DNA of 64,000 nucleotides from Nitrosopumilus sp. (GCA_965214775.1 OZ243974.1:1408001-1472000), one strand, 5' to 3'. Shown: positions 42,779-51,225, counted from the stretch's first letter. A program made the numbers and translations. Notes: a model not told the origin generated them from the sequence alone.

Positions 42779-43097
42779 AATAAGGGAGATCGAGAAATAT
42801 CACGACCTGATGTTGCGTGGAATAATCTCAAGATCCGACTTTGAAATGAAAAAGGACGCGCTGCTGGGCCTCGAAAAGTAGCCGGCCACGATCCTAAAAA
42901 CTGTCATTTGACAAGCATCATCCTTGTTGATATTGCATCCTGTTTCAGGATGCCTGCATTTGGAACAGTCTTCCTAGAAGTAATCCCGAAAACGACCTTG
43001 GATTTGAAATAAATCAAGTTATGGTGCATGGTATATGGCCGTCGAAGGTTTATGCAAAACAGAGTACTAAAATATGGAATATGGTACAGAATGCTGA

Positions 43098-43334
43098 ATG
43101 GTCAGACTGGATCTTGCACGCCTTGGCACGGATAATTCTGGCAATCATCCCTGTCAATGTGACATTGACGATGCAGTGGGAACAGCAGATGGAGGAGGAA
43201 GAATCAGGTTTGGCGATAGCAGCTTTACAATTGAAGAAAAGAATCCATATGTGATAATGTTTCCAATGGACGACGTCTGGAGACTTGGCGAAGCGCTGTC
43301 TGAGGCGCACGCGCAGGAGGGTGGCAAGGCATGA
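43098..43334 (+). CDS. small hypothetical protein, cassette unit A
   Basis: ATGA-coupled to the next gene; conserved in unit B (46944-47186). Confidence 0.5.
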   Translation: MVRLDLARLGTDNSGNHPCQCDIDDAVGTADGGGRIRFGDSSFTIEEKNPYVIMFPMDDVWRLGEALSEAHAQEGGKA

Positions 43335-43723
43335 CTGCAATAGACAGGCTTGCGACACTCTGGAGTGCGGCCATAGTGGTAGTAGCAGTAGGCGTTACGC
43401 TTGCAATGTCGTCTGCTGGGCCAGAGCCGGTCGGTACGGACATAGATCCCGCTGCGCCGTCTGCACTGTGCGAGTCCCACGGATATGAGTGGAACGAGGA
43501 GTATTATTTTTGTGATATGTGGAGCTCTCATGTGAGCGACAAGATATGCCATGATCATGGCATCGATCAACAGGATTGTCTTGACTATATACTTAAGCTT
43601 GACAGGTATGGTGATCTATGCCGTGAGTGGGGAGGTAATCCGGAAACATGCGACCCAGAAGCTGGGTTGAGTGCGGACAGTAGGACCAAGGTAGATATAT
43701 GCATGACGGTTTGCGGGTTTTAG
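43331..43723 (+). CDS. secreted 8-Cys miniprotein, allele A
   Basis: Hydrophobic signal/anchor, 8 Cys, ends CMTVCGF. Confidence 0.75.
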   Translation: MTAIDRLATLWSAAIVVVAVGVTLAMSSAGPEPVGTDIDPAAPSALCESHGYEWNEEYYFCDMWSSHVSDKICHDHGIDQQDCLDYILKLDRYGDLCREWGGNPETCDPEAGLSADSRTKVDICMTVCGF

Positions 43724-43725
43724 AC

Positions 43726-45336
43726 ATGCTCAAAATTGCGCCCCTCCTTGCATTGATTGTGTTTCTGCCCGCCGTGGCGGCCTCAATACATGCCGAAGAG
43801 TCTCAAACAGACGACTTGGCCGACGCACACGCCAAAATCACGCGGTACATGCAAGCGCAAAGCGACGCAATCCTGACCCATTCATCACCGCAACGACAAC
43901 AGCCCGACATAGCAGACGAACTGCCGGTGTTCATGTCGTTTGTAAACAGGACATCCAACGAGCTGGTATAGCAACGGGCAGAAGTCTTTGAGTCAAAGTA
44001 GGTCATAACTACACGTAAAAAACCTCAATTATTTCTGCTCGTTGCTATAGTCGGCCTTAATCGAAATGCCACCGGGACGGCAGAGCAGTACATGGAAAAG
44101 ATACGACAAATTACAAACGGTTCTGCCATTCCGGTACGACTAGTCTCAGGCTACTTTGTAGAGGAGTCATGCGATGCAGTCAATGCCAGGTGCGATCCAC
44201 TGATCGGGGGAATAGAGATCGGTCCCGTTACGGGTGGTCGTGGGGCGCTTACACTTCCTGTAATTAACAACAACGAACGCGGTTTTGTAATGTCGGGCCA
44301 TGTTGCAACCCATGACAAACCCAACAAGGGGATATGGCAGCCATACATAAGAAACGATATAAGTATTAATGTGGGTGTTATAACAACAAACCCATCAGGC
44401 ACCCGCAGCAGCGACTCTGCGTTTGTCCGTACGCTTGACAGCATTGCGTTGGAGCAAAAGATCTTCAACCCCGACGGCGATCCGTATGACGTTGTAGGGA
44501 CAAGAACGTCCGAGGTTCATGACATTGTGTACATGGCAGGGATAATAAACAAGACCATTAATGGTAAAAACTACACGACCACTTCCGGCGGAGTGCTTTC
44601 AACCGGGGTCACGATAGACAGTCAGATATACGGGACGCTTACCAACCAAAACGTGGCCTCATACCTGTCAGCAAGCGGTGACAGCGGGGCCCCCGTTTAC
44701 TCCCTCGATTCCGGAGACGGCGTGCTGCTTCACGGCATCCATGTGGGAAAGTCATGTTTCAGTGACTTTCCGCCGACGATCCAAATACCATATGTCTGCG
44801 AATACCCCTGGACCGTATACTCGCCCTGGGAGCATGTCCAGTCCGAACTGAACCTGAGACCCATTGTTGGGGGGGAAATATTCGACCTTCTAGGAATATA
44901 TTACGCAAGGCCCGACCTGCAGGCCGCATACCCGGAGGCTGCCTCCGGCGACATGGCCGGACTGATTAGGTGGGCCTGGCATCACGGAATCAACGAGTCT
45001 CCCACAGTCCTGGGCCCGCACGCGCACACGTATGCGCTGCTGCACATATGGAACCAGAGGCCCGACCTGCAGGCAGCCTGGCCGGAGGCCGCAACAGGCG
45101 ACCGTGCCGCACTGACTGTCTGGGCGCGCGACTGGGGAATCAACGAGTCTCCCACAGTCCTGGGCCCGCACGCGCACACGTATGCGCTGCTCTCCATACA
45201 TGACTCAAGACCGGATCTGCAGGCAGCATACCCCGAGGCCGCAACAGGCGACCGCACCGGGCTGTCCAAGTGGGCACGGGATCACGGGGTCACCGCCTAC
45301 CCGTCCATCTTGGGTCCGTATGCGGGAAGTTACTGA
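43726..45336 (+). pseudogene. secreted S1 serine protease allele A, interrupted by MITE A
   Basis: SGH / SDSA / GDSG triad; MITE at 43969-44047 in the prodomain; 3 C-terminal RPDL repeats. Confidence 0.85.
43969..44047. mobile_element. MITE family A copy
   Basis: 79 bp, TA duplicated, absent at the paralogous site in unit B. Confidence 0.92.
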
Positions 45337-45587
45337 CGGCTACGGACGAGATTCACCCGTTGCCATCTGCACAGGCATGAATTACATACTTCTGGGAAAA
45401 TTGGGCATCGTAATACACGCATCAAAAAATGGATCATGATTTTGCCACATCGTGTCTGTTTTGACACAAAAGTGTTTGATTTTCAACTGTGCACACTACG
45501 GATCATATCTCTGGGCAACATTTGGCATCATCATCATACCCTGCAAATACCCTAGTGGGAATGTAATCTGATGTCCCAGCTGAAATA

Positions 45588-49242: not shown

Positions 49243-49244
49243 CG

Positions 49245-50379
49245 TAGTATCTACGTCAGCCATTTGTTCATCTTTACCACCTTTATCTCGCCCCTGCGCG
49301 TCATACTGCGCAGTGATCTCTGCATCTCCTTGACGGTCTTGTAAAGGCAGTTTGAAGTCGCCTTTTTGAACCCGCGCCACTGCCCCTCCGAGTTGTTAAG
49401 CTCCGGCGCGTACGGCGGCAGGTACTTTAGCACCACGTCCCCGTTCCACTTGGCCATCTTTCTATTGAGTTCTGCTGACTTGTGGTACGATGCGTTGTCG
49501 ACAAACAACAACACCTTGCCGTACTTGCGGCGCAGTGTCCTGAGAAACTTGTAGAACGTTCCCGTGTTGGCCTTTTCGTAAAAGCGATAGTCAAACCTGT
49601 TTCTTGAGAGGGCCCCTATGACATAGAACCGCTTCCTAGACAGGCTGACGGGCGTATAGACCGGCTCTCCTACGGGGTACCAGCTGTTCTTGACGTTCCA
49701 TCCCAGTATGAACATGGACTCGTCGCCTATCATTACCGTGTACCCCTTTTTTGAATAGTACTTTGCGCTCTGCCTAGCTTTTTTTTTGAACTCCTTTTTC
49801 TCGGATTCTGAGGCTGATTTTGGGTGTTTTGGCCTGGGCTTTCTGCATGAGAAGCCGATTCTGTGCAGCAGGTCGTACATGCTCGTTTCTGCATACGTGA
49901 TGCCGAACTTCTTTTTGACGTGGGCAATGACCAGCGGCCCTGTCCATGTTGTGGCCTTAAAGCCGCAGTTGTCCGGGCCCTTGATCAGGTCTGCGCGCAG
50001 CCGTTCAAGCTGTTTCTTGTCGAGCCTGCACGGGGCGCCATGCTTTATGTCAAACCTGCCCTCCAGGCCATGCTTGTGCGCACGCACCAGCCAGTATCGT
50101 ACGGTTCCATACGGCCTGCTCAGCTTCTCGGCAATATCATATATGCTCGCGCCGCACTTTCTCATGTGGTATGCAAGGAGCCGGATTGCCGCCTTGGCGT
50201 CCTTCTCGGACTTGTGCATCCTAAAAAGCTCGTCCTTGCTTGCTATCCCGTACAGGAACGCTGTTCCCGTCGGTAATTCCTTCTTTCCTTTCATGTGTAT
50301 ATATGGGACTAATAGCTCTTAGATCCTTTGGTTGAAAAAAATTGTCCTTTTTGTGATCAATTGGTAGCCGAGGATACTA
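49245..50379 (-). mobile_element. IS630-family element copy 2 (transposase 49251-50294)
   Basis: Protein identical to copy 1; flanked by CG; empty site visible at 45331-45345. Confidence 0.92.
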
Positions 50380-50630
50380 CGGCTACGGACGAGATTCACC
50401 CGTTGCCATCTGCACAGGCATGAATTACATACTTCTGGGAAAATTGGGCATCGTAATACACGCATCAAAAAATGGATCATGATTTTGCCACATCGTGTCT
50501 GTTTTGACACAAAAGTGTTTGATTTTCAACTGTGCACACTACGGATCATATCTCTGGGCAACATTTGGCATCATCATCATACCCTGCAAATACCCTAGTG
50601 GGAATGTAATCTGATGTCCCAGCTGAAATA

Positions 50631-50891
50631 TTGCGCAAGAGAAAAGGCCAAAACGAAGAGTTCCAGACAAAGTGCCACTTTTGCAAGAAGGAATTCTTCT
50701 TAAAAAGAAACCAGTTTGACAAAATAGTAAAGAAAAGGCCGTTCTGCCAGAGCTGCAAGAAAAACACGCCTCCCGACGTTCCAAGCCTCTACTGCAAATC
50801 ATGCAAGAGAAACATCTTCTCAAAGTATGAGAATCCCAGATGCTACAAGTGTGGGGGACATTCCCAACTGGTTCCATTCGCATCAGGCTAG
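50631..50891 (+). pseudogene. zinc-ribbon fragment, unit B copy
   Basis: Protein identical to 45588-45848. Confidence 0.55.
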
Positions 50892-51225
50892 CTCGGATAC
50901 TGGATGATGATGGCAGAATAGGCTTGGATTTGTCTCAGACCACAGCAGAAAGGTCTGCCATCCGTACACATTCATGCCATCGTTGTGTATGGCCAGCTTT
51001 AAACCGAACCCGATGTAGTAGATATTCGACTTGGAATGCCCTGTGGGCTAAAGCCTGCGTATGCCGTTAGTGCAACGAACAGCACTGCAAGATAAGAAAC
51101 TCAAACAACAACTTCTAAAATCATGGAATTGGTAACTTGGCAAATACCTGAGATCAATGGAAAAGAAGGGTACTAAATCCAAACGCCGATCATGTGGTTA
51201 AATAGAAATTCTACAAGCATCAGCA

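Follow-up and report, generated by a model that had tools for sequence, protein, structure and literature searches.

What does a gene for a small cysteine-rich protein do beside the gene of a secreted serine protease, in a unit that stands twice in tandem and differs between its copies in a few sharply bounded segments? The question is raised by a 64,000-nucleotide (nt) stretch of Nitrosopumilus sp. (positions 1,408,001-1,472,000 of OZ243974.1, a single-contig genome of 2,833,656 bp), which we call the window and number from its first letter. Because the genome encodes archaeal AmoA, its host is an ammonia-oxidising archaeon. An initial annotation had described here a cassette of a secreted miniprotein and an S1 protease, both diversified, and had proposed either an effector/immunity pair that swaps alleles or a precursor peptide with its maturase. 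We find that the gene pair is real, present in several copies and partly decayed, and that in it a protease from an unannotated archaeal branch of the alpha-lytic-type S1 enzymes is joined to a cysteine-rich module not described before. We tentatively favour the reading that the protease is secreted and that its partner is a membrane-tethered cognate inhibitor (or immunity protein), although several other readings have to be weighed against it.

A two-gene unit in tandem and elsewhere

As blastn shows, together with sliding windows of 60 nt along a four-way alignment, two adjacent units, A (42779-45912) and B (46625-50953), have flanks that are 93-100% identical. Five blastn blocks of 93.0-98.5% identity bear out the two homologous units of the initial annotation: 42779-43519 with 46625-47362 (93.5%), 43705-43967 with 47461-47723 (98.5%), 44051-44216 with 47726-47891 (94.6%), 44410-45115 with 48103-48829 (93.0%) and 45331-45912 with 50375-50953 (98.1%). 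In both units the stop codon of the cysteine-rich gene, hereafter the partner, is followed after 2 nt by the ATG of the protease (43723/43726 in A, 47479/47482 in B), exactly as first described. The main features are:

43331..43723, plus strand: partner A, long type; 130 amino acids (aa), signal anchor and eight Cys; closest to copy D (76%)
43726..45336, plus strand: protease A pseudogene, a pre-pro alpha-lytic-type S1 protease, its prodomain interrupted by a miniature inverted-repeat transposable element (MITE)
47174..47479, plus strand: partner B, short type; 101 aa, with anchor and linker to about 47335 and a variable eight-Cys core at 47336-47476
47482..49242, plus strand: protease B, intact; 586 aa comprising signal peptide, prodomain of ~110 aa, S1 domain, and 57-aa C-terminal repeats from about 48600
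47893..48096, plus strand: hypervariable 'His block' in the N-terminal beta-barrel of protease B; its blocks 47893-47979 and 48004-48096 lie on either side of the invariant FVMSGH
47995-47997 (His), 48106-48108 (Asp) and 48376-48378 (Ser), plus strand: codons of the conserved catalytic triad of protease B

The initial annotation knew the pair as a tandem only. tblastn and a genome search place two more copies elsewhere, C near 2.808 Mb (minus strand, 749-aa protease) and D near 1.762 Mb (660-aa protease), and gene order and the 2-nt gap are identical in all four. Because the status of the neighbouring SHOCT and zinc-ribbon genes varies among these copies, the cysteine-rich gene with the protease gene 2 nt behind it is the sole constant unit. 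There is also a truncated relative, gene E (genome 1,178,066-1,178,719, 217 aa), in which the partner's signal anchor and a four-Cys stretch (including LCES.GHEW) are fused to the protease prodomain alone, the product ending where the mature enzyme would start. Gene E is colinear in G288, a genome of another genus, at 78% aa identity and a ratio of nonsynonymous to synonymous divergence (dN/dS) of 0.37, in an unrelated neighbourhood; by its make-up, it could be a tethered free-standing prodomain.

Outside this genome, HMMER found seven partner relatives at E ≤ 0.001 among 1.84 billion representatives; for the protease, a word-indexed search among 5.8 billion proteins yielded 17 relatives of similar length. 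In a cluster look-up, partner and protease homologues came from metagenome contigs of identical size in three cases:

3702 nt: P0038 (partner) and P0004 (protease)
5428 nt: P0024 (partner) and P0033 (protease)
9013 nt: P0025 (partner) and P0029 (protease)

Equal sizes are hard to explain unless partner and protease genes share those contigs, so that, judged from size alone, three metagenome contigs apparently hold both genes, which extends the proposed linkage beyond the four genomic copies. Among shorter protease fragments there were no further size-matched metagenome contigs, and a homologue-locus search returned no relative in metagenome contigs for either alignment A2 or P0003, and none in genome contigs for A2.

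In two genomes of the same genus, G178 and G335, a signal-anchored protein of ~300 aa, which falls into no known family, is encoded ahead of the closest protease relatives; its stop codon and the protease start overlap, by 4 or 8 nt, which makes it a different coupled partner.

Could the duplication itself be a co-assembly of two strains, one of the conditions under which the initial annotation would have withdrawn its claim? This is unlikely: the genome is one contig, and in read run X1, possibly the source sample itself, the exact unit-specific contigs of A (43350-43738) and B (47236-47492) have similar depths of 79.8 and 84.1.

The protease is closest to the alpha-lytic group

The protease has no match to a Pfam trypsin family at E ≤ 0.01 or to any NCBIfam family at E ≤ 0.1; its Pfam and NCBIfam matches are weak and lie in the C-terminal repeats only, and a single-sequence search against sequences of the Protein Data Bank (PDB) returned nothing relevant. 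An AlphaFold2 model of protease B, made from the 17-homologue alignment, contains two six-stranded beta-barrels, the chymotrypsin fold; mean pLDDT is 59, with the repeats disordered and block values mostly 75-94 over residues 160-365. Foldseek against the PDB gave at least 500 matches at E ≤ 0.001, with rice NAL1 first and with alpha-lytic protease, Lysobacter L1 and L5, NAPase, SGP and TFPA at target TM-scores of 0.80-0.84 (E 1e-11 to 1e-13). The 17-sequence profile, searched against PDB sequences, found the L5 lytic endopeptidase (1.3e-6), alpha-lytic protease (about 1e-4) and streptogrisin B (6e-4), and its matches to structures of this group, which we take to be MEROPS subfamily S1E (alpha-lytic protease, L1, L5 and the streptogrisins), span 1.3e-6 to 2e-3. 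The family motif 'liGGIe' (GGIE) aligns with the N-terminus of the mature L5 and alpha-lytic enzymes, and the His, Asp and Ser motifs line up too. All 17 homologues keep His181 and Asp218; Ser308 (GDSG) is kept in 16/17, the exception being copy D of this genome. By predicted fold and profile, then, the protease is an S1 enzyme of chymotrypsin fold whose nearest relatives are the alpha-lytic and streptogrisin enzymes, and the chymotrypsin-clan assignment of the initial annotation, made from the triad, agrees with this.

Both protease and partner have hydrophobic N-termini, which in the protease is a signal peptide. Between this and GGIE, the model has an alpha/beta N-terminal extension (helix 31-60, strands 77-94, helix 101-111, strand 119-128) in which the Pfam pro-region model finds no match. 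Its ~110 residues lie where alpha-lytic and streptogrisin enzymes carry theirs, and we regard it as a predicted prodomain. At the other end, the 57-aa repeats of the A and B proteases also close two LVIVD-repeat proteins (about 2040 aa) and a subtilisin-like protease of 790 aa, all encoded at about 1,156,365-1,182,184 of the genome, and from this distribution the repeat looks like a common targeting or anchoring module of the secretome; copies C and D end instead in FG-GAP-like or LamG modules. A profile of the protease family has matches in 69 of the 401 genomes of the class, about 34 of which cover the catalytic domain. PADLOC had no match for 7 proteins, and PHROGs gave weak matches only, of unknown function.

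Divergence is concentrated in old islands in homogenised flanks

Units A and B are 98-100% identical in 60-nt windows over the signal peptide and most of the prodomain and over the C-terminal barrel. The partner core (B 47339-47490) drops to 10-66% identity and the surroundings of the catalytic His (B 47888-48120) to 36-68%. The C-terminal repeat arrays are unlike one another, with a period of 150 nt repeated 1.9 times in A and of 171 nt repeated 3.0 times in B; these results uphold the claim that three parts differ sharply. Between the two islands lies the prodomain, in which A, B and C are 98-100% identical. The groupings supported by parsimony-informative sites differ between islands and flanks:

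Partner core: AD|BC 34 sites, AB|CD 1, AC|BD 1
His block: AD|BC 52 sites, AB|CD 0, AC|BD 0
C-terminal barrel: AD|BC 1 site, AB|CD 14, AC|BD 0

Between the two types, synonymous divergence (dS) is about 1.0-1.8 in the islands (about 1.0-1.2 in the His block) and 0.01-0.25 in the flanks. Saturated dS inside near-identical flanks indicates that the islands are old alleles and that the flanks around them have been homogenised; a recent arms race is not what these values describe. Within types, dN/dS is raised in the islands: in the His block it is 1.26 for A-D and 0.71 for B-C, and in the partner core 0.93 for B-C and 0.58 for A-D. For signal peptide and prodomain, five of six pairs lie at 0.10-0.24, and the sixth (B-C) has 0.64 on only 3 substitutions. 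Window identity, informative sites and dN/dS concur with the earlier statement that both partners are diversified, and that they are so in discrete islands. Residues that vary in the protease, 48/111 in the N-terminal barrel and 26/115 in the C-terminal barrel, are mostly in loops. In enzymes of chymotrypsin fold, the prime side and the S2 rim of the cleft are lined by the loops on either side of the catalytic His.

That partner core and N-barrel type co-segregate as AD|BC fits a physical partnership of the two products. It might also come about with no direct partnership at all, if two exposed or secreted proteins each evolve fast towards the outside (viruses, grazers) and islands 400 nt apart have become too diverged for gene conversion. 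Saturated between-type dS in both islands amid near-identical flanks is in keeping with such a history, in which the shared grouping could be mere ancestry; the N-barrel stretch that holds the His block is in any case where the 17 homologues are least conserved, and modules such as the 57-aa repeats are common to many secreted proteins of this genome. We nevertheless consider the absence of a partnership unlikely. The pair and its 2-nt gap are kept in 4/4 copies while the adjoining SHOCT gene decays in three, and the pair apparently recurs on the three metagenome contigs at ~50% protease and ~40% partner identity. Moreover, the differences between B and C cluster at two places, the partner core and a single loop of the protease (residues 148-159), the remainder of the His block being 100% identical.

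The partner is a cysteine-rich module with a signal anchor

Partners come in two lengths, 130 aa (A, D) and 101 aa (B, C), with eight Cys each; tblastn puts partner B at 83% identity with copy C and at 53-55% with A and D. In the long type there is an insert of 29 residues that contains a Cys pair of its own. Among nine aligned partner sequences, C47, C69, C78 and C99 are invariant in 9/9, and positions 61 and 95 are Cys in 8/9 (read from alignment blocks); as aligned, the module is built of six conserved Cys plus one type-specific pair, and belongs to no known family. A hydrophobic segment (residues about 6-31 in partner A) precedes it, so that the small protein with its eight Cys is exported or anchored, as first stated. 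The anchor motif, M.GIDK.A..WS.AIV..GVG, is common to membrane-tethered plastocyanin-like proteins of ~200 aa in many related genomes and, on that comparison, is a signal-anchor type of the whole lineage. Behind the anchor, the linker (…SSAGPEP…PSALCES…) is conserved, with dN/dS of 0.15-0.35, and is followed by the hypervariable core, in which the Cys framework is kept.

Relatives of the module are few. Those found by HMMER include the E type and tandem double 'linker + module' forms (P0024, P0025), and none has a Pfam match at E ≤ 1 except for a chance DNA_pol_B_2 match on P0024 (E 0.038). A class-wide profile search of the 401 genomes recovered the full module in this genome and in G288 (as E type) only, the remaining 17 hits being the common signal anchor or remote modules without a neighbouring protease. 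A single-protein search recovered the partner in 0/60 relatives, bar one chance-level match.

Conserved leader, hypervariable core on a fixed Cys framework and adjacent protease together make up the layout of a leader-core precursor, with cleavage putative, and this gives rise to the main rival of a tethered inhibitor: the partner could be the anchored precursor of a disulfide-rich peptide (archaeocin, signal or toxin), and the protease the maturase that cuts the linker and frees the core. The combination of a conserved leader, here anchor and linker, with a hypervariable core is typical of conotoxin-like precursors and of those like ribosomally synthesised and post-translationally modified peptides. 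The metagenome relatives P0024, P0038 and P0025 carry 'linker + module' twice, like multi-core precursors, and the two genes are translationally coupled. An archaeal precedent exists in halocin C8, a 76-aa peptide which, according to the text of a bioRxiv preprint (10.64898/2026.07.27.741052), is cut from its precursor by an unknown protease. What a maturase would leave unexplained are the hypervariable N-barrel loops that segregate with core type, for an enzyme that cuts a conserved linker should be conserved there. Neither partner matches the halocin C8 domain (NCBIfam TIGR04449) at E ≤ 0.1, and the partner genes of A and D are intact despite their dead proteases, a weak objection since the MITE insertion in A looks recent. 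On balance, we hold a precursor with its maturase to be somewhat unlikely.

How a tethered inhibitor would work

Under the tethered-inhibitor reading, the functional core would be a two-gene operon, partner gene first and protease gene second. The first product would sit on the outer face of the membrane by its N-terminal signal anchor, with the disulfide-rich module pointing outward; the second would be a secreted pre-pro protease, whose prodomain folds the enzyme and is then cut off, and whose exchangeable C-terminal modules would serve binding or anchoring. The tethered module would bind the rim of the active-site cleft that the N-barrel loops form, either as a cognate inhibitor that shields the cell's own envelope or as a restraint on the enzyme until its release. 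Old allele pairs of module core and N-barrel loops would stay together, while gene conversion evens out the sequence between and around them.

We favour this reading, at less than even confidence, because the pair is tightly coupled and is kept while its neighbours decay, because the protease varies exactly where a ligand of the cleft rim would bind, and because the genome keeps gene E, an anchor with the prodomain alone, which is under purifying selection in another genus. The pro region of alpha-lytic protease is a tight inhibitor of its own enzyme, and by analogy tethered protease modulators may be a theme in this lineage.

Several results weigh against an inhibitor. The annotation had called the miniprotein inhibitor-like, and it is disulfide-rich and exported; partners A and B match no described inhibitor family, with no Pfam hit at E ≤ 0.01 and no NCBIfam hit at E ≤ 0.1, and a nine-sequence partner profile finds nothing among PDB sequences at E ≤ 10. 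It had also expected miniprotein and protease alleles to co-vary, and both islands do group as AD|BC, but with four copies and two types, two independent segments share a grouping one time in three by chance, and ancestry, together with gene conversion blocked at highly diverged islands, also explains the co-segregation. At 29 loci of more distant protease homologues in related genomes the partner is present in 0/29, and remote C-terminal Cys modules in four other genomes all lie away from any protease. Finally, the leader-like linker, hypervariable core and tandem repeats would suit a processed precursor at least as well.

Neighbouring genes and mobile elements

The initial annotation had given each unit a fixed order, from a SHOCT membrane protein and a small open reading frame (ORF) through the pair to a zinc-ribbon fragment. 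Of this order the pair stands. The SHOCT gene of unit A is reduced to 33 codons, the small ORF lacks a coding signature and the zinc ribbon is inconstant:

42780..42881, plus strand: 3' remnant of the SHOCT gene in unit A; last 33 codons (42780-42878) and stop; left end of unit A
42882..43330, plus strand: non-coding spacer of unit A, 85-100% identical among the four copies; spans the 'small ORF' at 43098-43334
45588..45848, plus strand: zinc-ribbon ORF of unit A, 86 aa; weak match to Pfam DZR_2 (9e-4), below cut-off
46074..46727, plus strand: SHOCT-domain membrane protein of unit B, intact; ATG at 46074, longest ORF from 45882
46728..47173, plus strand: non-coding spacer of unit B, 446 nt; perfect 8-bp hairpin at 46781-46799 and GGAGG 9-13 nt ahead of the partner ATG
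50631..50891, plus strand: zinc-ribbon ORF of unit B, its protein 100% identical to that of unit A; end of the repeat at 50953 (blastn)

The SHOCT protein has two hydrophobic segments and a match to Pfam SHOCT (0.002) that is below cut-off. Its remnant in unit A, where the repeat begins at 42779, corresponds to SHOCT residues 249-281 at 100% identity (tblastn); the gene is intact in B, 5'-truncated with an in-frame stop in C, and split by an insertion sequence (IS), again with an in-frame stop, in D. The zinc-ribbon ORF is missing from C and D (tblastn, whole genome), and that of unit A aligns with a 265-aa ORF at 18112-18909, in its C-terminal part only. By this comparison of copies, SHOCT gene, 'small ORF' and zinc-ribbon ORF are flanking passengers and not consistent members of the unit. 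At 18112-19787 of the window, that 265-aa ORF forms with a SHOCT gene a fifth zinc-ribbon/SHOCT pair, 96% identical to the unit B copy and with no partner or protease genes after it; this partner-less SHOCT copy (18858-19787) is intact.

Two candidates within the spacer were rejected. As a gene, the 'small ORF' (46944-47186 in B) has variable sites spread 14/13/13 over the codon positions, with 28 codons varying nonsynonymously and 3 synonymously only; copy C has a shortened version, and in B the alternative frame is interrupted. As a structured RNA, the spacer has a consensus fold with 1 compensatory pair of 128 predicted, and an Rfam scan gave just two sub-threshold Fungi_U3 matches (22 bits, for a gathering score of 95), which lie on the minus strand of the first ~150 spacer nt. 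These first ~150 nt past the SHOCT stop (46728-46880 and equivalents) are 96-100% identical in all four copies, hairpin included, unlike the adjoining signal and prodomain coding stretch, in which copy D is 83-91% identical to the others.

The window as a whole is an IS-rich island with at least nine transposase ORFs, and three mobile elements touch the units directly:

41248..42778 (start approximate), plus strand: IS4-like insertion sequence; transposase ORF 41752-42714, Pfam DDE_Tnp_1 at E 1.4e-7
43969..44047, no strand assigned: MITE of 79 nt within protease A; terminal inverted repeats, TAGCAACGGGCAGAAG; target duplication, TA
49246..50378, minus strand: IS630-like insertion sequence; transposase 49251-50294, Pfam DDE_3 at 1.2e-26, and HTH_33

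The IS4-like element adjoins and truncates the first SHOCT copy, that of unit A; seven near-full copies exist in the genome, at about 90-92% identity, and one of them interrupts the protease of copy D. Directly after the stop of protease B, and ahead of the zinc-ribbon ORF, sits the IS630-like element, whose empty site is visible in unit A; with 17 full genome copies at 99.8% identity, it looks recently active. Within the window, its copies at 49246-50378 and 34299-35431 are 99.7% identical. The MITE, with terminal inverted repeats of 16 nt, has 75 full-length genome copies of 94.5% mean identity, is identical in 79/79 nt to the window copy at 24642-24720, and reaches a depth of about 7000 in run X1, where adjacent bins have 120-290. 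A contig from run X5 lacks the MITE and differs from A by about 8%; since this contig may stem from the D paralogue or from an orthologue, it is uninformative on whether the MITE is polymorphic. A 423-nt element at 58575-58997 has the same ends as the 79-nt MITE and may be a longer relative or its parent. Just upstream of the IS bordering unit A, a 1221-aa ORF (36583-40248) encodes a large secreted protein of the island, made up of an N-terminal HEYGHH motif, two fn3 and four HYR domains and, at the C-terminus, a LamG-like domain.

Both units had been credited with a secreted serine protease. On translation, the 79-nt MITE puts two in-frame stops into the prodomain of protease A, while its catalytic motifs remain (SGH at 44293, SDSAF at 44410, GDSGA at 44677). 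In copy D, the catalytic Ser is replaced by Asn (GDNG), and the C-terminal LamG-like domain is cut by the IS4-like element. As read from these lesions, protease function is lost in two of the four copies (A and D); the proteases of B and C are unbroken and keep the whole triad. Might the pair, then, be no more than a decaying selfish repeat, spread by IS recombination through an IS-rich island, with its function gone? Two dead proteases out of four, SHOCT genes broken in A, C and D, the many transposase ORFs of the window and the high copy numbers of MITE and IS630-like element would all agree with such decay. It is hard to reconcile with the two intact proteases, with purifying selection on signal peptide and prodomain (the low dN/dS in five of six pairs) and with the presence of protease family and partner in other organisms, and we judge it very improbable.

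Relation to known systems

Secreted alpha-lytic-type proteases are bacteriolytic weapons and textbook cases of prodomain-assisted folding. With alpha-lytic protease, L1/L5 and the streptogrisins, the protease described here has in common the double-barrel fold, the His-Asp-Ser order with GDSG, the GGIE mature N-terminus and the pre-pro secreted layout with its ~110-residue extension. It differs from them in that Pfam and NCBIfam trypsin and pro-region models fail to match, in its archaeal host, in the gene of a coupled partner upstream, in long variable loop insertions of the N-terminal barrel, and in its C-terminal repeat, FG-GAP-like or LamG modules. Its His, moreover, stands in SGHVAG, without the Cys by which S1E enzymes close their His-loop disulfide.

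Bacterial proteases encoded or deployed with their inhibitors include the staphopain-staphostatin and SpeB-Spi operons and periplasmic ecotin. Common to these and the present pair are a secreted protease beside a small putative neutraliser and tight coupling of the genes. However, the known inhibitors have other folds and are mostly neither membrane-tethered nor disulfide-rich, whereas here the partner gene lies upstream, its product falls into no described family, and inhibition would be a property predicted for it.

A resemblance to polymorphic toxin-immunity and colicin-immunity systems lies in the hypervariable islands of two adjacent genes amid near-identical DNA, in several mosaic copies per genome, and in partner genes that outlast a dead effector (A and D). 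These features would suit an allele-specific effector with its immunity protein, acting in self/non-self recognition: the lytic S1 protease would attack the envelopes of competitors, the tethered inhibitor would guard against the matching allele only, balancing selection would keep the old allele classes, and the partners of A and D would be orphan immunity genes. The order typical of polymorphic toxins, a variable C-terminal toxin domain followed by an immunity gene, is not the order seen here, as the variable catalytic part is the N-terminal barrel, the C-terminal modules are non-catalytic and the partner is upstream. Nor is there a dedicated secretion or RHS-type delivery module, and harm to other cells is hypothetical; we regard this extension of the tethered-inhibitor reading as decidedly unlikely.

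Halocin C8 is a cysteine-rich peptide, although the term 'cysteine-rich' occurs 0 times in the preprint text. It and the partner would have in common an exported archaeal product and proteolytic processing, which is putative here; they differ in size and Cys pattern, in the export signal (a Sec-type signal anchor here rather than Tat), and in the protease gene, which here is adjacent.

Alpha-lytic-type proteases are, to our knowledge, not an annotated feature of ammonia-oxidising archaea, and a full-text literature search found nothing on such a protease or such a partner in these organisms; the available text of PMC12352652 mentions neither lytic or serine proteases nor Nitrososphaera-type archaea.

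Should the partner turn out to be a processed peptide, it would be the first example known to us of a precursor encoded together with its protease for an archaeal disulfide-rich peptide. More generally, a protease and its partner, in mosaic allelic copies, offer a testable candidate for the biology of conflict and self-protection in a group of organisms whose social life is almost unknown.

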